Shown here: positions 1,318-32,488 of the stretch, one piece after another
Layout of the letters: every line of letters begins with the position of its first letter
Position numbering within the stretch: position 1 is the stretch's first letter
Origin: Escherichia phage AV109
Sequence record: OR352939.1
Strand: one strand, 5' to 3'
DNA: 64,000 nt
Made by a program: the position numbers and the translations under genes
Notes under the pieces: generated by a model
What the model was told of the DNA's origin: nothing
What the model saw: only the letters and a program-made list of their open reading frames with translations
Databases searched by the model: none

Positions 1318-1497
1318 TTATGCAACAACCTTTCCAAAACGAGAAGCATCATCTCGAAGAACTGCACGTGCTCTGCGCATGATCTTCTCAACGGTTTGAT
1401 TAATACGAGAGTTCGACCCACGCTTGTATCCAGCGCGTTTAGAGGTACCATCAACTTTCTTTTCAACTGCTTTCTTTGCTTTAGCTTGTTTTGCCAT
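1318..1497 (-). CDS. small basic protein (59 aa), hypothetical; not in ORF track
   Basis: ATG 1497-1495 to TAA 1320-1318, translated by hand: MAKQAKAKKAVEKK...; followed by terminator hairpin. Confidence 0.4.
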   Translation of the reverse strand: MAKQAKAKKAVEKKVDGTSKRAGYKRGSNSRINQTVEKIMRRARAVLRDDASRFGKVVA

Positions 1498-1660: not shown

Positions 1661-1909
1661 TTATTTCAAAGTAATAACAAAATGACGTACTGCTTTACGA
1701 GCTGCAGAAGCCAAAGGCTTAGCATATTTCAGTTCATCTTTTGCTTCCAGTTCAGAAGCCAAAGCTGCCTGGACCGGGTTCAGATGTTTGAAATAACGCA
1801 AGATTTCCAGTGCTTCGGCTTCAACATCAATCGACGCGCCGTAGTTTTCATGACCATTATTCCATGCGTTTCGTTGCAGTTCAAGAGCGTGTTGTAATTG
1901 TTTAATCAT
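1661..1909 (-). CDS. rIII: rIII lysis-inhibition accessory protein (82 aa)
   Basis: size and position immediately downstream of gene 31 as in T4; sequence resembles remembered T4 rIII. Confidence 0.7.
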   Translation of the reverse strand: MIKQLQHALELQRNAWNNGHENYGASIDVEAEALEILRYFKHLNPVQAALASELEAKDELKYAKPLASAARKAVRHFVITLK

Positions 1910-2025
1910 TTTAAATTCTCAATTCGAGATAATATTTAGTAGCCACGTTCGTCTGAATTTCACCTTCTTTCGACAAGTCTCTCAGTTGTAGGCTACCGCT
2001 TAGAAGAGTGTTCTCTTCATATAGT

Positions 2026-2033
2026 TATTTATA
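2026..2033 (-). promoter_or_regulatory. late promoter motif TATAAATA upstream of rIII
   Basis: exact TATAAATA on minus strand directly after gene 31 stop. Confidence 0.35.
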
Positions 2034-2366
2034 TCACTTATAAAGACACGGAATAGCTTTATAGTGGCATGTTACGAATTTCTGTTTAATTTCTTTAGGT
2101 TGTTTAAGTCCCAAAGCCACAAATGGATGTGGAACATTTCGAATTTGTCCAACTGGTAGTGGAGTCAAATCACCGACTTCAACAAAACCTTCAGGAACAT
2201 CAGGACCTACAGAATGAACTACACATAGTTCAGGAACTTCACCTTGAACACGTTTACCAATCACAAGTCCTGATTCGGTAACTTCTTCATCACCTGCTTG
2301 AGCGGGTTCAGAAACCAGAATGACATATTCACCAACAGCACGAATTGGGAGTTGTACTTCAGACAT
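2034..2366 (-). CDS. 31: gp31 co-chaperonin (GroES analogue) for capsid protein folding
   Basis: near-identical to T4 gp31 ([34 protein letters not shown]...[11 protein letters not shown]). Confidence 0.92.
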
Positions 2367-2423: not shown

Positions 2424-2732
2424 TTACATAAGAAGCAAACGTTCTACCGGAGTACCATCAACCGAAATTACTTTATCAAGGCGGAAAGAACGCCACTGAC
2501 CTAACTCGGTATCGAATGCTCGAACTGATTCACGAGGTTCAGAACGAACTTCTGTTGATGGGTTACTATTTTCATATTTGACTTCAAGTTCGTCGCGGGA
2601 AGCAAACATCGTACGAACATCACCGTTAGCCTTTTCAAATACAACACAATGAACGCCTACAGACAGAATAGTTTTAATACATTCACGAAGAACCATAGTT
2701 TCTTGTTCAGTTAAAATCATATTATTCACCAC
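2424..2732 (-). CDS. hypothetical protein (102 aa)
   Basis: ORF between cd and 31. Confidence 0.45.
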   Translation of the reverse strand: MVNNMILTEQETMVLRECIKTILSVGVHCVVFEKANGDVRTMFASRDELEVKYENSNPSTEVRSEPRESVRAFDTELGQWRSFRLDKVISVDGTPVERLLLM

Positions 2733-3303
2733 AAAAGTTTCGAATTTGTTCCCAATTCAGAGAACGAAGATTATTACGAGAGTACTGAATTACTTCAATA
2801 CCGGCTTTTTTTAGAATGTCTGCCCAATTTTCAGGAGATCGGTCATATAATTCTGCATATACAACCTTTTTAATACCTGACTGTGTAATAGCTTTAGTGC
2901 AATCAGGACATGGAGAAAGCGTCGTATACAACGTAGCACCTTCAATAGAATTACCTTTACGAGCTGCAAACAAAATTGCATTCAATTCCGCATGGATTTC
3001 GTTATTAGCAGACCATGCACTATGAGCGGCCCGATGTTCTTTAGCCAAAACAAAATTATCCACCCGTCCAAATGCTGTAGTGCCTTCTTTATGCCCAGCA
3101 ACGATGACCGGGCTTGGTTTATTCTTCAACCAACCATTTTCGGATGCATGTTCGCAACAGTTTGTACCACCTGAAGGAGAGCCATTATAACCTGTAGAAA
3201 TAATGCGTCCATCTTTTTCAATGACGGCGCCAACTTTCCATGAACAACATTTTGATTCTTGAGAAATCAGATAAGCAATCTGAAGATATGTGCTAGCTTT
3301 CAT
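2722..3303 (-). CDS. cd: dCMP deaminase
   Basis: 193 aa; cytidine/dCMP deaminase zinc motifs HAELNAI and SPCPDC; T4 cd length and position. Confidence 0.9.
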   Translation of the reverse strand: MKASTYLQIAYLISQESKCCSWKVGAVIEKDGRIISTGYNGSPSGGTNCCEHASENGWLKNKPSPVIVAGHKEGTTAFGRVDNFVLAKEHRAAHSAWSANNEIHAELNAILFAARKGNSIEGATLYTTLSPCPDCTKAITQSGIKKVVYAELYDRSPENWADILKKAGIEVIQYSRNNLRSLNWEQIRNFCGE

Positions 3304-4295
3304 TATTGAACCTTATTAATATAAGTTAACAGCTCTTTAGTTTGTTCCCAACTGATGCACGCATCGGTAATGGAAACGCCATAGGACATATTATCAGAAA
3401 TTTTTTGATTTCCTTCATGTAGGAATGATTCTATCATAATTCCTTTGACCAAATCATTAGCTGCTAAATTTTTACCAATACCAATTTGATTGCTATAATG
3501 CCCATCAGCGTTTGCATGGCTACAGTCAACCATTACATAATGATTCAGACCTACTGCCCTTGCTTTGTTAGAAGCTTCTTGAATATCAGAAGAATGATAG
3601 TTCGGGCCGTTAGTCCCGCCACGCAATACGATATGCGTATTCTGATTACCTTCAGCTTCAACAATGCCTACAGTACCATCGACGTCCATACCCATATACC
3701 GATGAGGCCGCGCGGCACTATACATCGCGTCTGTAGCTACTTTAATAGAACCATTGGTTGCGTTCTTGAAGCCTACGCACATCGGTAGACCTGAAGCAAT
3801 TTCACGATGTGTCTGACTTTCAGTCGTACGGGCGCCAATAGCAACCCATGAGAAAATACCAGAAAGATACTTAATCGTGAATGGGTCTAATACTTCAGTT
3901 GCTAATGGAAGTCCCATACGTAGAAGTTTACGACACAATGTTCGTGCAACTATAAGACCGTGGTTCATATCAAAACTTCCGTCAAGATATGGATCATTTA
4001 CAAGACCTTTCCAACCTACGGTAGTTCGAGGCTTTTCAAAATAAACGCGCATCACTAACAGAACATTAGGAAGACGAGTTTGAAGTTCAGCCAGACGTTT
4101 GCCGTATTCAACAGCAGCAATAGGGTCATGAATTGAACAAGGACCTACAACAATAAGTTTGCGTGGGTCTTCACCGTTCATAATCGAATTAACTTGTTCG
4201 CGATGAGAAGCCACTTGTGATGCGTAAGCTTCCGACAAAGGAATAATCTCAGCCAGTTCTTTTGGAGAAATAAGTTTTCTGACGACAGGTAACAT
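3303..4295 (-). CDS. 3-deoxy-D-arabino-heptulosonate-7-phosphate (DAHP) synthase, class I alpha (AroG/AroF-like)
   Basis: 330 aa with hallmark blocks LIVVGPCSIHD, MRVYFEKPRTTVGWKGL, AIGARTTESQTHRE, CVGFKN, LRGG..PNY, GVSITDACI closely matching E. coli AroG; AAGGA SD before ATG 4295. Confidence 0.85.
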   Translation of the reverse strand: MLPVVRKLISPKELAEIIPLSEAYASQVASHREQVNSIMNGEDPRKLIVVGPCSIHDPIAAVEYGKRLAELQTRLPNVLLVMRVYFEKPRTTVGWKGLVNDPYLDGSFDMNHGLIVARTLCRKLLRMGLPLATEVLDPFTIKYLSGIFSWVAIGARTTESQTHREIASGLPMCVGFKNATNGSIKVATDAMYSAARPHRYMGMDVDGTVGIVEAEGNQNTHIVLRGGTNGPNYHSSDIQEASNKARAVGLNHYVMVDCSHANADGHYSNQIGIGKNLAANDLVKGIMIESFLHEGNQKISDNMSYGVSITDACISWEQTKELLTYINKVQ

Positions 4296-4415
4296 AACAA
4301 TCCTTAGGAGATATAAACAGATTCTGATTCAACAATACCTTTAACCGGATTAGACAGGCTAAGTTGGTAGTGCTCAGATTTATGACCATTCTCGATAGTA
4401 ATGAGATAGCTCTCA

Positions 4416-4652
4416 TTATAGTGTTCCATATACTCGAGTTGCTTCAACAAGACCATCACTGCCTAATTTAAGATTAGTAATTTGGTCACCATCTTTAGGA
4501 TTAACGATTATGAGAAAAGAACGTGGAGATTCTTGAATAACTCGTAATGTTGCATCCTGGAAACGTTCAGACACTTTATTGATGAGTGCTTGAGCAAATT
4601 CTTTTACTTTAATCTGAAATTCGTGTACTGTAATTGGATTTTCACTTAGCAT
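4416..4652 (-). CDS. hypothetical protein (78 aa)
   Basis: ORF with GAGGAAA SD; early promoter upstream. Confidence 0.45.
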   Translation of the reverse strand: MLSENPITVHEFQIKVKEFAQALINKVSERFQDATLRVIQESPRSFLIIVNPKDGDQITNLKLGSDGLVEATRVYGTL

Positions 4653-4678
4653 TTCGATTTCCTCATTTTGGTAGAGTC

Positions 4679-4708
4679 ATCATAACACAACTCTACAGTG
4701 TTGTAAAC
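4679..4708 (-). promoter_or_regulatory. T4-type early promoter (GTTTAC / TATGAT)
   Basis: minus-strand GTTTAC at 4708-4703, TATGAT at 4684-4679. Confidence 0.45.
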
Positions 4709-4984
4709 TTAAATTGCAAAACATTTAATTTCTTGTGAATCGAAATCAACTTCACACTGAATTACTAGATCAGCATCAAGTCCAAACACAACAATCACAT
4801 GAGCCGAGCTGGGCAACAACGTAACAGACACAGAATCCACTTGGTCAGGCACTAGTGTATTCAAAACGTAGAGTAGTTCAGAGTGGACCTTAAGCTCAGT
4901 AGCCGTATCCAGCTTATCAAAGAAATGATTTGCGATAATCTGACTAAAAACTACCTTTACAATTTCAGAATATTTAGGGAACAT
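4709..4984 (-). CDS. hypothetical protein (91 aa)
   Basis: ORF in cd-proximal array. Confidence 0.4.
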   Translation of the reverse strand: MFPKYSEIVKVVFSQIIANHFFDKLDTATELKVHSELLYVLNTLVPDQVDSVSVTLLPSSAHVIVVFGLDADLVIQCEVDFDSQEIKCFAI

Positions 4985-4991
4985 AATTACC

Positions 4992-5216
4992 TCAGTGCAC
5001 AGTATTTACTTTAACTCGAACAACAAATCGCTCGGTTGGTTCACCGACGGGAACAAACTCTACATGATATTCACCTTTGTAACGAGTATTCAGATCATTA
5101 CGAATTCCTGCGAGTTTGTTGATTAATGTAGGACTCATATTAAGTCCCACTAGTTTACGAAGCATTTTGTATGCTTCATCTTCGATTTCATGATGTTTAT
5201 CGTACATAGTTTTCAT
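4992..5216 (-). CDS. hypothetical protein (74 aa)
   Basis: ORF in array. Confidence 0.4.
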   Translation of the reverse strand: MKTMYDKHHEIEDEAYKMLRKLVGLNMSPTLINKLAGIRNDLNTRYKGEYHVEFVPVGEPTERFVVRVKVNTVH

Positions 5217-5387
5217 TTAACCATTCAATTGCCTGGTCGACGTTATCAAATATACCGCCGTCCAAACGTTCTTCACGCTCATAGTCCATCACATCAATAC
5301 CGAACTGTCCATTTACTAAAGGCCAGGCTACAAACAAATATTCTTTATGATGTTCGATGGCCTCAATCACTTCATATAATCGTTTCA

Positions 5388-5388
<1 letters not shown>
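5197..5388 (-). CDS. hypothetical protein (63 aa)
   Basis: ORF abutting pseT stop. Confidence 0.35.
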
Positions 5389-6474
<1,086 letters not shown>

Positions 6475-31696: not shown

Positions 31697-32488
31697 ATGG
31701 CAATTGTAGGTGTTCCTGGCTGGATTGGCGAATCTGCCGTAAATGAAACTGGACAACGTTGGATGGATGCTGCAATGAAAGCAGTTCGTGTTTCAGTTCC
31801 TGGTTGGATGAGTTCAATGGCTGGGCAATCTAAAGAGATTCATTATAGCATTGGTGCTAGCAATTCTTACAATAAAGACACACTAATAAACTGGATAAAA
31901 GCCCAAGGAAGCACTCCTGTTGTTATTACTATTACAGGAAATATTGTTTCTCAATCTACCGGTGTTCCATGCTTAGATTTTCCTAGCTCATTAACTAATG
32001 CATATGTTACCTTAAATATTAATAGTGGGGTTCATGTATTAGGTCGGGGAGGAAATGGCGGAAGTAACTCTGCTGGCGGAGCAGGAGGAACTGCAATAAA
32101 TAACGGAATTGGAACTCGTTTAAGAATAAACAATAATGGTATTATTGGTGGCGGCGGAGGTGGCGGCGCTGGTGCTAGATACCATCCTTTCCCTCAAATG
32201 GATATGATATTTGGTGGCGGCGGAGGTCGTCCATTTGGCGCAGCTGGCGCAGCAGGAGGTGGCGCAGCGGCAGCATCCGCTGGTACAATTTCTGCTCCTG
32301 GTAAAGGTACTGTTTCTGGGGTTCACTATGGAGGAAATGGTGGAGATTTGGGAGCTGCTGGCAAATCTTCATATATTCAAGGTGGTACTGGAGGAACTGT
32401 TCACTCGGGTGGTGCAGCAGGTAAAGCTGTTACTGGTAATGCTCCAACTTGGACTAAAGTTGGTACAATATACGGTTCAAGAGTATAA
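31697..32488 (+). CDS. 38: gp38 tail-fibre tip adhesin (T2-type, glycine-rich motifs flanking variable segments)
   Basis: 263 aa; conserved N-terminus MAIVGVPGWIGESAVNETGQRWMDAAM, poly-Gly tracts (GGGGGGGAGA, GGGGG), C-terminal NAPTWTKVGTIYGSRV. Confidence 0.85.
   Translation: MAIVGVPGWIGESAVNETGQRWMDAAMKAVRVSVPGWMSSMAGQSKEIHYSIGASNSYNKDTLINWIKAQGSTPVVITITGNIVSQSTGVPCLDFPSSLTNAYVTLNINSGVHVLGRGGNGGSNSAGGAGGTAINNGIGTRLRINNNGIIGGGGGGGAGARYHPFPQMDMIFGGGGGRPFGAAGAAGGGAAAASAGTISAPGKGTVSGVHYGGNGGDLGAAGKSSYIQGGTGGTVHSGGAAGKAVTGNAPTWTKVGTIYGSRV

Follow-up and report, generated by a model that had tools for sequence, protein, structure and literature searches.

We identified a gene for a DAHP synthase of type I-alpha in the window, a stretch of 64,000 nucleotides from Escherichia phage AV109 (OR352939.1). 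Its protein has an intact active site, and the site at which cellular relatives are regulated by feedback is systematically altered. The enzyme is very probably catalytically active, condensing PEP and erythrose-4-phosphate to DAHP, and judging by the residues that have been replaced, it is likely to be insensitive to feedback. From the association of genes across phages, we give about an even chance to the view that this enzyme supplies prephenate to a phage protein of the U32 family. We further propose, tentatively and at just short of an even chance, that DAHP synthase and chorismate mutase form a prephenate module for this U32 Fe-S enzyme, which would make 5-hydroxycytosine DNA precursors without O2.

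A phage gene for type I-alpha DAHP synthase

The 330-residue ORF and all five motifs that the sequence-only reading had quoted from it were found, and the gene lies upstream of cd as described there, between cd.2 and cd (Table 1). Its stop codon and the start of cd overlap as TAATG. In T4, the same slot holds just cd.1, in agreement with the earlier statement that only small ORFs occur there. The protein matched Pfam DAHP_synth_1 (E = 1.3e-75), NCBIfam TIGR00034 aroFGH (429.7 bits; cut-off, 173.2), and PRK12755 (457.6 bits; cut-off, 343), and it scored below the cut-offs of the isozyme-specific models (AroH, 387.8 versus 463; AroG, 365 versus 568). The best match among solved structures was AroF (E = 2e-105). 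KDO8P synthase (KdsA), which forms the second branch of PF00793, was rejected as an identity because the NCBIfam matches were to DAHP synthase models only.

TABLE 1 Coordinates of the DAHP synthase gene and its surroundings in the window
Feature	Coordinates	Strand	Evidence
cd (dCMP deaminase)	2722..3303	−	Pfam dCMP_cyt_deam_1, 92.5 bits
Junction repeat, right copy, CAATAATGAAAGCTAGCACAT	3288..3308	−	Spans DAHP synthase stop and cd start
DAHP synthase gene, phage-clade type I-alpha, 330 aa	3303..4295 (including stop codon)	−	ORF list and profile matches
Shine-Dalgarno sequence AAGGA	4301..4305	−	5 nt 5' of the DAHP synthase ATG; overlaps stop of 41-aa ORF; read from sequence
41-aa ORF, read as the 3' half of a cd.2 (DUF7320) gene of foreign origin	4304..4429	−	Pfam DUF7320 positions 44-76/78, 28.8 bits (cut-off, 27)
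Junction repeat, left copy, CTATAATGAGAGCTATCTCAT	4401..4421	−	17/21 identical to right copy
cd.2 homologue, 78 aa, DUF7320; upstream neighbour, same transcription unit	4416..4652	−	Pfam DUF7320, 121.5 bits; alignment with T4 and RB69 cd.2
Sigma-70-like promoter candidate, TTTACA, 17-nt spacer, TG TATGAT, in cd.3/cd.2 gap	4679..4707	−	Consensus scan, 10/12 matches

The AF2 model of the protein (pLDDT, 92.9) has a coil at residues 1 to 10 and contains the beta6a/beta6b hairpin of the (beta/alpha)8 barrel (strands 198 to 203 and 209 to 214). Foldseek superimposed it on the DAH7PS crystal structures 4hso, 1gg1, and 5cks with a TM score of 0.96 and an rmsd of 1.4 Å. The metal ligands Cys53, His260, Glu289, and Asp311 (AroG Cys61, His268, Glu302, and Asp326) were invariant in all phage homologues aligned. 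The residues that bind PEP and E4P were invariant in an alignment of 41 sequences (AroG Arg92, Lys97-Pro-Arg-Thr, Gly163-Ala-Arg165, Lys186, and Arg234; in the window protein, Arg83, KPRT, Arg156, Lys177, and Arg225). Family, fold, and intact active site of a type I-alpha DAHP synthase are thus established. The class proposed from the sequence holds up on profile scores, structural similarity, and catalytic residues alike, and the metal ligands, whose retention had been left to be checked by alignment, are all kept.

Compared with E. coli AroF (Tyr-sensitive; PDB 6AGM), the phage enzyme is 51% identical and has the same fold and catalytic residues, but it is 26 residues shorter and lacks the N terminus of AroF, approximately nine residues. 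The equivalents of AroF Gln152, Ser181, Pro151, Asp156, and Phe210 are replaced; therefore, inhibition by Tyr is unlikely.

Alteration of the feedback site

To describe the allosteric site across the clade, we compared 25 cluster representatives of the phage clade with the 98 closest cellular enzymes, using AroG numbering. Three positions that are nearly or fully fixed in the cellular enzymes differed in practically every phage representative: Gln151 (98/98 cellular) was Lys in 24/25, Ser180 (97/98 cellular) was Pro in 25/25, and Phe209 (98/98 cellular) was Tyr in 25/25. Likewise, Asp155 was replaced by Gly and Pro150 by Ile in 24 of the 25 phage representatives each (Asp in 96/98 and Pro in 89/98 cellular enzymes), and the N-terminal segment with Asp6/Asp7 was deleted in all 25. 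The earlier description of a feedback-regulated enzyme is therefore improbable, with the N-terminal segment gone and five allosteric residues replaced throughout the clade.

Feedback-resistant AroG and AroF are known to arise by the changes P150L and S180F, by changes at Q151/Q152, and by deletion of Ile11 (PMC9529685; PMC5791370). The positions altered in engineered enzymes (AroG P150L, S180F, and L175D; AroF Q152I and Ile11 deletion) match those altered in the phage enzyme (PMC9529685; PMC5791370). Unlike the engineered enzymes, the phage DAHP synthase combines several such changes with an N-terminal deletion, naturally and clade-wide. The gene is annotated in hundreds of phage genomes, mostly as "aldolase" or "hypothetical," and a naturally feedback-resistant DAHP synthase is a specific and cheaply testable prediction for it. 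Such a naturally deregulated enzyme would be of interest for the production of aromatic compounds.

The replacing residues are themselves conserved in the phage clade (Lys142, Pro171, Tyr200, Gly146, and Ile141), which could mean a new effector site at the old allosteric site rather than none. New conserved residues in this pocket, as a possible new binding site, would also suit a catalytically dead, decoy, or moonlighting protein, with a host regulator or a defence protein as its target, for instance; the sequence-only reading had entertained a decoy or moonlighting function. However, all metal, PEP, and E4P ligands are kept across the clade down to 55% identity, which argues for selection on catalysis, and we regard a noncatalytic role as extremely improbable.

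Association with U32 and chorismate mutase in Straboviridae

By tblastn, the counts for the phage DAHP synthase fell within those for the phage U32 protein when sorted by organism name (DAHP synthase/U32: Escherichia, 124/136; Klebsiella, 25/26; Shigella, 12/14; Proteus, 7/7; Serratia, 6/7; Enterobacter, 4/4; Edwardsiella, 3/3). It is important to note that this nesting of DAHP synthase within U32-bearing phages is based on counts by organism name, not record by record, and is confounded by shared ancestry. In each genome with DAHP synthase that was checked individually (AV114, PEi20, EcS1, X20, CBH8, R3_1, MY742, and Marfa), U32 or the chorismate mutase that flanks it was present.

The U32 protein is strongly conserved in DAHP synthase-bearing phages inside the gene cluster for 5-hydroxycytosine/arabinosyl DNA modification, which in Straboviridae is separated from the DAHP synthase gene by ∼65 kb. 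The order in this cluster is U32, chorismate mutase, and ThyA homologue; 51 phage records have the chorismate mutase (Pfam CM_2, 40.9 bits; cut-off, 27) in this position, with U32 on one side and the 5-hydroxy-dCMP synthase homologue on the other. Mosigvirus and Marfavirus have no chorismate mutase. In AV114, a 53-aa ORF separates U32 from the ThyA homologue; it was considered as a diverged chorismate mutase and rejected, with no match in Pfam or NCBIfam. Yersinia Tegunavirus has U32 and chorismate mutase and no DAHP synthase at the cd locus. RB69 has neither DAHP synthase nor chorismate mutase, yet its DNA is fully modified when it is grown in air.

Ten cysteines are invariant in the phage U32 subfamily, including a C-x4-C-x3-C-x2-C arrangement with the potential to hold an Fe-S cluster. 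Its assignment to the family is based on the Pfam U32 profile (42.2 bits) and on structural matches reported previously (PMC13326640). The canonical GALCxAYSGxC segment is missing, and the subfamily is only remotely related to RlhA, TrhP, and UbiU/V, with no significant BLASTP match to E. coli RlhA or TrhP.

The modification pathway also offers a different partner for the enzyme. Drain of erythrose-4-phosphate could pull transketolase flux toward ribulose-5-P for nucleotides and for the UDP-arabinose used in DNA arabinosylation; Mosigvirus turns Ru5P to arabinose via a phage arabinose-5-P isomerase, and this isomerase also occurs in many phages with DAHP synthase. The two distributions disagree, however. 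In T4-like phages of Acinetobacter, the isomerase of the modification pathway was found in 57 records, and neither U32 nor genuine DAHP synthase was found; conversely, among ∼25 Klebsiella phage records with DAHP synthase, at most 3 have the isomerase. A link to arabinose and the pentose-phosphate pathway, which would in addition leave the chorismate mutase unexplained, is for this reason rejected as the main explanation and is very improbable.

It is also conceivable that chorismate is wanted for other products, either folate (via pABA) for thymidylate synthesis and for the folate of the baseplate or quinones and enterobactin. T-even phages depend on folate, and the gene, whose translation is coupled to that of cd, lies among genes of nucleotide metabolism. 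Nevertheless, Tequatrovirus and other T4-like phages with equal folate needs do without it, the co-occurring chorismate mutase would draw chorismate away from pABA and quinones, and no pab, ubi, or ent genes were present in the annotated phage regions examined. We consider such a use quite unlikely.

DAHP synthase and U32 in independent viral lineages

Genes of the same U32 subfamily and DAHP synthases also stand side by side in viral contigs from outside the Straboviridae. In two of these contigs (L022 and L040), U32 is directly followed by a core-only DAHP synthase of type I-beta, and in four others (L051, L054, L055, and L065), it adjoins a fusion of DAHP synthase and chorismate mutase. In such contigs, the subfamily also adjoins genes for dCMP deaminase, thymidylate kinase, dNK, NT5C, and TAGT. 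For the viral type I-beta proteins, KDO8P synthase was ruled out as an identity on scores. Among 19 viral loci with a DAHP synthase-chorismate mutase fusion, the 10 kb around the fusion include U32 in 6, a CmoA-like gene in 9, and one or the other in 15.

These neighbours bear on a more general explanation, in which DAHP synthase, with chorismate mutase where present, increases the synthesis of the Phe, Tyr, and Trp that go into phage proteins once host gene expression has been shut off. This reading has been given for Klebsiella phage KLB31 (PMC11845039). The enzyme catalyses the step that controls flux in aromatic amino acid synthesis and has an intact catalytic site, a deregulated entry enzyme fits an amino acid role too, and about half of the viral DAHP_synth_1-family loci had neither U32 nor CmoA in the flanks examined. 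Feedback resistance, however, matters only when amino acids are plentiful, and the host branch enzymes are still feedback-inhibited; therefore, extra chorismate would not be turned into amino acids under those conditions. In Pfam lists and annotations of the loci examined, as distinct from a dedicated search, there was no phage gene for prephenate dehydratase, prephenate dehydrogenase, or the Trp branch. Moreover, amino acid supply leaves unexplained the confinement of DAHP synthase to U32-bearing Straboviridae (by organism-name counts), the placement of chorismate mutase between U32 and 5-hydroxy-dCMP synthase, and the location of DAHP synthase-chorismate mutase fusions beside U32 or CmoA genes elsewhere among phages. 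We judge it unlikely, although it carries some weight. The suggestion that the gene is an auxiliary metabolic gene (AMG) thus stands insofar as phages carry here a metabolic gene that came from cells and has been kept under selection, but its amino acid version accounts for the association with U32, chorismate mutase, and CmoA less well than does prephenate supply.

A proposed route from DAHP to 5-hydroxycytosine

U32-dependent hydroxylation takes its oxygen from prephenate, and direct hydroxylation by a U32 enzyme has yet to be demonstrated (PMC10990095). RlhA, a U32 protein, requires prephenate and Fe-S for the formation of 5-hydroxycytidine (PMC5727448). In the supply of prephenate that we propose, the promoter candidate upstream of cd.2 would drive early transcription of DAHP synthase along with cd.2 and cd. 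With its feedback site lost or rewired, the enzyme would keep carbon entering the shikimate pathway despite plentiful Phe, Tyr, and Trp and shut host isozymes. DAHP would then be processed by host AroB to AroC, and the final conversion, yielding more prephenate, would be left to a chorismate mutase of the phage itself in most genera and to PheA/TyrA of the host in Mosigvirus. As O2-independent hydroxylases, enzymes of the U32 family would use up this prephenate as an oxygen donor, one molecule per reaction. The demand would be considerable: ∼63,000 cytosines per genome and a burst of 100 to 200 amount to 0.6 × 10^7 to 1.3 × 10^7 molecules. This is a sizeable share of the total Phe and Tyr demand of one cell.

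In this scheme, the phage U32 would do under anaerobic conditions what the known 5-hydroxy-dCMP synthase does with O2 and flavin. In the published route, a flavin-bound ThyA homologue and O2 produce 5-hydroxy-dCMP, and the U32 protein RB69 gp50 was only guessed to be a "sugar or heterocycle reductase." We also considered that the known synthase might itself need prephenate and rejected this because the published evidence shows flavin and 18O2.

Paired routes of this kind exist in E. coli, where TrhO/TrhP (for ho5U) and UbiI/H/F versus UbiU/V each comprise an O2/flavin and a U32/prephenate route to one product, as proposed here, and E. coli RlhA makes ho5C (5-hydroxycytidine), the base chemistry that we propose for the phage U32. 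The phage case would differ in having a deoxynucleotide or DNA substrate and a genome-stoichiometric demand, and its U32 belongs to a distant subfamily. A second parallel is the CmoA/CmoX carboxymethylcytosine system of Synechococcus phage S-B43, in which phage CmoA uses prephenate in a likewise genome-wide DNA modification, and for which the availability of prephenate was named an open question (PMC12783734). That system employs a Cx-SAM synthase, not U32 (PMC12783734), and is linked to the present case by the CmoA-like genes that adjoin viral DAHP synthase-chorismate mutase fusions. In a term search, DAHP, chorismate, and U32 did not occur in the same paper (PMC12783734). Like classical AMGs, such as the pentose-phosphate and photosynthesis genes of cyanophages, the DAHP synthase is a host-derived enzyme placed by a lytic phage at a flux-controlling step. 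In contrast to those, the proposed beneficiary is a cofactor-like cosubstrate for DNA hypermodification rather than bulk building blocks or energy.

That phages carry DAHP synthase genes is already known; in print, we found a phage DAHP synthase only in a one-paragraph mention as an AMG (PMC11845039). The mechanism of prephenate supply appears new in the accessible literature, the coverage of which was incomplete, and an earlier description is possible. The association suggests that phage shikimate-pathway genes may serve the chemistry of DNA hypermodification rather than amino acid supply. If the proposed module exists, prephenate would donate oxygen stoichiometrically across an entire viral genome, a function could be assigned to RB69 gp50, and the source of prephenate for CmoA-type phage modifications would be accounted for. 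The module would also explain why DAHP synthase, chorismate mutase, and U32 genes occur in phages that infect facultative anaerobes and are missing from those of Acinetobacter. Of relevance to phage therapy, it would show how phages with arabinosyl-5-hydroxycytosine keep their anti-restriction modification under the anoxic conditions of the gut. Should the link to U32 hold, these phages would offer a high-flux natural system in which to reconstitute prephenate-dependent hydroxylation.

Origin of the gene and its insertion at the cd locus

DAHP synthase was found in ∼200 GenBank phage records from at least 6 genera. It is absent in RB69, Tequatrovirus, and other T4-like phages, and it occupies the same slot between cd.2 and cd in Mosigvirus, Kanagawavirus, Marfavirus, Winklervirus, Bragavirus, and one Providencia phage. 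From one genus to another, the identity of DAHP synthase changes in step with the identities of cd, pseT, and gp31. In a Kimura-distance NJ tree, the phage clade was monophyletic in 30/30 bootstraps, and its sister group was AroF-like and cellular. Thus, given the shared slot in six genera, the core-gene-like divergence, and the monophyly, the donor of the gene was another phage and not the host. An ancestor shared by several Straboviridae genera probably acquired a gamma-proteobacterial enzyme of the AroF type in a single event, and the feedback site was lost or rewired later. Two low-identity "phage" DAHP synthases were set aside as cellular-looking DNA, one on the Acinetobacter MD-2021a contig, which carries cob genes, and one on a faecal scaffold (the one with informative neighbours), which carries ABC-transporter, MarR, and AroD genes.

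The segment upstream of the gene had been described as a 120-nt noncoding gap without a recognizable early promoter. The second part of this description is borne out, in that positions 4296 to 4415 contain no promoter-like site. The first is not: the segment is filled by the 41-aa ORF, which corresponds to the C-terminal half of DUF7320, begins with an ATG that overlaps the stop codon of cd.2, and is annotated as a CDS (WPK34951.1) in Escherichia phage AV114, a Mosigvirus (OR352944.1). This ORF aligned best with cd.2 of Kanagawavirus PEi20 (38%), compared with 26% for AV114's own cd.2. A recent duplication of the neighbouring cd.2 was rejected, as BLASTP gave no alignment and the ORF is nearer to cd.2 of another genus. 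By its sequence, the ORF is a recombination scar, the apparent relic of another phage's cd.2.

The candidate at 4707..4679, which is the closest sigma-70-like site upstream, is a probable early promoter for cd.2, the fragment, DAHP synthase, and cd; in T4, an early promoter is annotated at the same position, between cd.2 and cd.3. From this candidate to cd, the minus strand showed no terminator-like site. The recent insertion suggested in the sequence-only reading is half right: the gene is old in phages, being found in six genera, but at the level of Mosigvirus the locus does look like an insertion. RB69 is without exactly the 41-aa fragment and the DAHP synthase segment, which is flanked by a direct repeat with 17/21 identical nucleotides, and the blastn alignments of RB69 with AV114 overlap by 19 nt at this repeat.

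Locus and gene order

The window region matched Escherichia phage AV114 (OR352944.1; Straboviridae, Tevenvirinae, Mosigvirus) at 100% identity, with window position 1 corresponding to about position 32,002 of the AV114 record. The 330-aa ORF contains every DAHP synthase (DAHPS) motif quoted in the sequence-only reading and lies, as proposed there, between the pseT-side small ORFs and the dCMP deaminase gene cd; its stop codon overlaps the cd start (TAATG). In agreement with that reading, T4 lacks DAHPS in this slot and carries cd.1 instead. The earlier observation is real, except for the "120-nt non-coding gap." This segment holds a 41-aa ORF, annotated in GenBank, that scores above threshold against Pfam DUF7320 (the cd.2 family), over the C-terminal half of that domain. 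No promoter-like site was found in the segment, in agreement with the earlier reading. A sigma-70-like site is present farther upstream, in the gap between cd.3 and cd.2, which holds an early promoter in T4. Because this site lies upstream and no terminator-like site was found on the minus strand between it and cd, the DAHPS gene is probably part of an early transcription unit.

Features of the DAHPS locus and the modification cluster of AV114 (window positions unless marked; L012, AV114 cluster region)
Feature	Position	Strand	Remark
pseT	5388..6287	minus	First in minus-strand order, followed by three small ORFs
Sigma-70-like site	4707..4679	minus	TTTACA, 17-nt spacer, TG-TATGAT; cd.3/cd.2 gap
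cd.2	4416..4652	minus	After the three small ORFs
41-aa ORF	4304..4429	minus	Between cd.2 and DAHPS
DAHPS	3303..4295	minus	330 aa; between 41-aa ORF and cd
cd	2722..3303	minus	Directly after DAHPS
Modification cluster	AV114 record 97.4-104.0 kb		Just outside window
53-aa ORF	L012:15718-15876 (AV114 record 99,714-99,875)		Outside window
U32 gene	AV114 record 99,872..101,032 (L012:15876-17033)		Pfam Peptidase_U32, 42.2 bits

The MotA-box-like motif WWTGCTTYA occurred 26 times in the window (expected, 10 +/- 3.2; 26 reached by no shuffle). One copy, inside the DAHPS gene (3792-3800, minus strand) and ~490 nt upstream of cd, could be part of a middle promoter. The AV114 gp31 and rIII genes (window 1661-2366) were 97% and 93% identical to T4, while the adjacent cd and pseT (window 2722-6287) were only 72% and 75% identical, a pattern resembling a Tequatrovirus-like mosaic patch within a Mosigvirus. 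Two GenBank products look wrong: "1,4-alpha-glucan branching enzyme" for a 59-aa lysine-rich ORF (window 1318-1497) and "tail fibers protein" for a gene 31.1 homologue (window 2424-2732).

Enzyme identity and allosteric site

The window protein matched Pfam DAHP_synth_1 (E = 1e-75), NCBIfam TIGR00034 (the aroFGH equivalog; 429.7 bits; cut-off, 173.2), and PRK12755 (457.6 bits; cut-off, 343) and fell below the cut-offs of both the AroG- and AroH-specific models. Its closest solved relative was Escherichia coli AroF (E = 2e-105), with identities of 51% to AroF, 47% to AroG, and 44% to AroH. The metal ligands (Cys53, His260, Glu289, and Asp311) and the PEP/E4P residues (Arg83, Lys88-Pro-Arg-Thr91, Gly154-Ala-Arg156, Lys177, and Arg225) were invariant in all phage homologues aligned. 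The AlphaFold2 model (pLDDT, 92.9) superposed on type I-alpha DAH7PS crystal structures with a TM of 0.96 and an rmsd of 1.4 A. The class I-alpha assignment made earlier thus stands on profile scores, fold, and catalytic residues, all four metal ligands being kept. Based on these scores, the AroF similarity, the invariant residues, and the superposition, the protein is predicted to be a catalytically competent DAHP synthase. It is a full family member in every feature but the defining allosteric site.

We aligned 25 cluster representatives of the phage clade and the 98 closest cellular enzymes at the Phe/Tyr pocket positions of AroG/AroF.

Residues at allosteric positions (AroG numbering) in cellular and phage DAHPS
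Position	Cellular enzymes	Phage clade
Gln151	Gln 98/98	Lys 24/25
Ser180	Ser 97/98	Pro 25/25
Phe209	Phe 98/98	Tyr 25/25
Asp155	Asp 96/98	Gly 24/25
Pro150	Pro 89/98	Ile 24/25
Asp6/Asp7 segment	Asp/Asn/Glu at position 7, 98/98	Deleted 25/25

The window enzyme lacks about the first nine AroF residues, and residues 1 to 10 of its model are coil. The positions altered in the phage clade are exactly those named as feedback determinants in AroG (P150L, S180F, Gln151, and Asp155; PMC9529685) and AroF (Pro148, Gln152, and deletion of Ile11; PMC5791370). The sequence-only reading had called the enzyme feedback regulated; with these pocket residues replaced and the segment deleted across the clade, we instead predict insensitivity to aromatic amino acids. 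Since the replacement residues are themselves conserved, the rewired site may have a new effector specificity. Such predicted natural deregulation of a whole phage clade is new here.

History of the gene

A tblastn search with DAHPS matched 212 phage-collection records. We inspected three of the 13 with the lowest identity (nine "Bacteriophage sp." and four Acinetobacter MD-2021a): the neighbours were clearly cellular in two, and the third gave no clear indication. In the "Acinetobacter phage MD-2021a" contig (CAKLQF020000009.1), cobalamin genes lie alongside aroF; genes for an ABC transporter, MarR, and AroD are present on the faecal scaffold MT837410; and in MT838377, which is less informative, the neighbours are two GH25 lysozyme-family ORFs. 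Some phage-filed records are thus probably cellular DNA. All 13 were set aside as such, leaving ~199.

In Mosigvirus, Kanagawavirus, Marfavirus, Winklervirus, Bragavirus, and a Providencia phage, DAHPS lies at the same place, with cd.2 on one side and cd (or cd.1) on the other; in X20, the ORF after it is a cd.1 homologue. Tegunavirus has no DAHPS at the cd locus. DAHPS identity between genera (76, 66, 68, 59, and 58%) varies in step with the identities of cd, pseT, and gp31, and cellular homologues reach at most about 55 to 57%. In a neighbor-joining tree, the 25 phage representatives were monophyletic (30/30 bootstraps), with an AroF-like gamma-proteobacterial group as sister. The shared slot, the tracking of core genes, and this topology point to one old capture, after which the gene would have resided in phages.

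RB69, the Mosigvirus type species, lacks DAHPS, and its cd.2 abuts cd. The extra segment in AV114 (about 1.1 kb, roughly window 3306..4400) consists of the 41-aa fragment and DAHPS; on either side of it lies a copy of a direct repeat (17/21 nt) of the cd.2-stop/cd-start junction. The fragment is 38% identical to cd.2 of Kanagawavirus PEi20, versus 26% to AV114's own cd.2. Transfer of the cassette from another DAHPS-bearing phage to a Mosigvirus ancestor, through recombination at microhomology, would fit these features; so would its loss from RB69 by deletion between the repeats. Under either reading, the "gap" is a recombination scar. The recent insertion proposed earlier is supported in part: the segment is absent from RB69, and T4 and RB69 lack DAHPS, but the gene is old in phages, being monophyletic, and several other genera fill the same slot. 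The annotated RB69 cd (169 aa; locus L014:5743-6252) diverges from AV114 and T4 near its C terminus (...ILKPSWY*), suggestive of a frameshift, or of an error in sequencing the reference genome.

A possible link to DNA hypermodification

A recent study of RB69 showed that Mosigvirus DNA contains poly-arabinosylated 5-hydroxycytosine and that a ThyA homologue with bound flavin uses O2 to make 5-hydroxy-dCMP (PMC13326640). The same study noted structural similarity of RB69 gp50, within the modification cluster, to U32 "collagenase" and gave it a guessed function; a term search of it for DAHP, chorismate, prephenate, and U32 found none. The U32 family includes RlhA, TrhP, and UbiU/V. RlhA makes 5-hydroxycytidine in 23S rRNA and needs prephenate and Fe-S (PMC5727448); for UbiU/V, prephenate is the shown oxygen donor of O2-independent hydroxylation, with phenylpyruvate as the proposed product (PMC10990095). 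The phage U32 proteins are very distant from RlhA and TrhP. Their ten invariant Cys residues, including a C-terminal C-x4-C-x3-C-x2-C, are compatible with Fe-S clusters. The subfamily members (about 360 to 390 aa) lack the GALCxAYSGxC segment of E. coli U32 proteins and are 82 to 89% identical between phage genera, a conservation far above that of DAHPS or of the arabinose-5-P isomerase.

The DAHPS gene and the U32 cluster lie about 65 kb apart in Straboviridae. By organism name, in phage-collection counts confounded by shared descent, DAHPS is nested within U32: Escherichia (124 DAHPS, 136 U32), Klebsiella (25, 26), Shigella (12, 14), Serratia (6, 7), Proteus (7, 7), Enterobacter (4, 4), Edwardsiella (3, 3), and Yersinia (6 U32; not among the ten organism names listed for DAHPS). 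Arabinose-5-P isomerase is distributed otherwise (57 Acinetobacter records, at most 3 Klebsiella). T4-like phages of Acinetobacter, a strictly aerobic genus, thus possess the O2-dependent pathway but lack both U32 and a genuine DAHPS.

In 51 records, a 79-aa chorismate mutase (CM; CM_2, 40.9 bits; cut-off, 27) is encoded between U32 and the ThyA homologue; these records are from phages of Klebsiella, Serratia, Yersinia, Enterobacter, Edwardsiella, Erwinia, Pectobacterium, Shewanella, Providencia, and Morganella. CM is absent from Mosigvirus and Marfavirus; RB69 lacks both DAHPS and CM. In Mosigvirus, an unrelated 53-aa ORF sits in the place of CM, between U32 and the 5-hydroxy-dCMP synthase homologue; it was rejected as a CM, searches giving no family match.

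We propose that under anoxia, when the flavin/O2 enzyme could not work, phage U32 would hydroxylate the cytosine precursor at a cost of one prephenate per cytosine. Each genome would then need ~63,000 prephenate molecules, and a burst of 100 to 200 would need 0.6-1.3e7. T4-type phages have duplicated ribonucleotide reductases, oxic and anoxic, a precedent for such paired enzymes. Host DAHPS and CM are both feedback-throttled when aromatic amino acids are available (PMC5791370), which would be why the phage brings a feedback-blind DAHPS plus, in most genera, its own CM. Counting against the proposal are RB69, with neither DAHPS nor CM; Tegunavirus, with no DAHPS at the cd locus; the distance between DAHPS and the cluster; the remoteness of phage U32 from RlhA and TrhP; the shared descent behind the organism-name counts; and the many viral DAHPS-family loci with neither partner gene nearby. 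The DAHPS gene was already known from annotation, and an auxiliary metabolic role has been suggested in print: we found no published comment on its purpose beyond the generic hypothesis for Klebsiella phage KLB31 (PMC11845039). That DAHPS simply serves aromatic amino acid supply seems to us rather improbable, and other readings of its role less probable still. For the full chain, from deregulated DAHPS through prephenate to U32-dependent hypermodification, we consider the case evenly balanced; the likely role as prephenate supplier is new here.

Unrelated viral lineages

The phage U32 subfamily has many metagenomic relatives (45 to 58% identity). Their neighbours in large viral contigs include dCMP deaminase, thymidylate kinase, dNK, NT5C, and glycosyltransferase genes; no ThyA homologue was found by tblastn in flanks of up to 10 kb on each side. 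U32 is directly flanked by a core-only type I-beta DAHPS in two contigs, L022 (237 bits for the DAHPS model versus 63 for KDO8PS; no regulatory domain) and L040, and by a DAHPS-CM fusion in four (L051, L054, L055, and L065). Among 19 viral fusion loci, six had U32 within 10 kb, one had it elsewhere on the contig, and another nine had CmoA-like genes within 10 kb. Besides U32 proteins, CmoA is the other enzyme known to consume prephenate. Phage CmoA/CmoX carry out genome-wide DNA carboxymethylation, and the authors of that work raised the availability of prephenate as a question still to be answered (PMC12783734). In the flanking sequence covered, neither U32 nor CmoA was seen at about half of the viral DAHP_synth_1-family loci.

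In one IMG/VR contig (3300045988_142414; L086:5000-16000), a DAHPS-CM fusion is flanked by two CmoA-like genes (TIGR00740, 179 and 168 bits, just below the 193.3 cut-off), an MTA/SAH nucleosidase, and ParB-N/methyltransferase proteins; together they may supply Cx-SAM for DNA carboxymethylation as a self-sufficient unit. In two megaphage-like contigs encoding DNA polymerase III alpha (L019:7447-9086 and L023:7504-9083), dCMP deaminase lies immediately upstream of U32, mirroring the DAHPS-cd coupling in the window. In a further viral contig (L024:5777-14179), the genes on either side of U32 encode a glycosyltransferase and a TAGT-type DNA glycosyltransferase; dUTPase/DCD and UDP-galactopyranose mutase genes are close by. 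Given these glycosyltransferase neighbours, the gene set fits a hydroxylated base made by U32 and then glycosylated.
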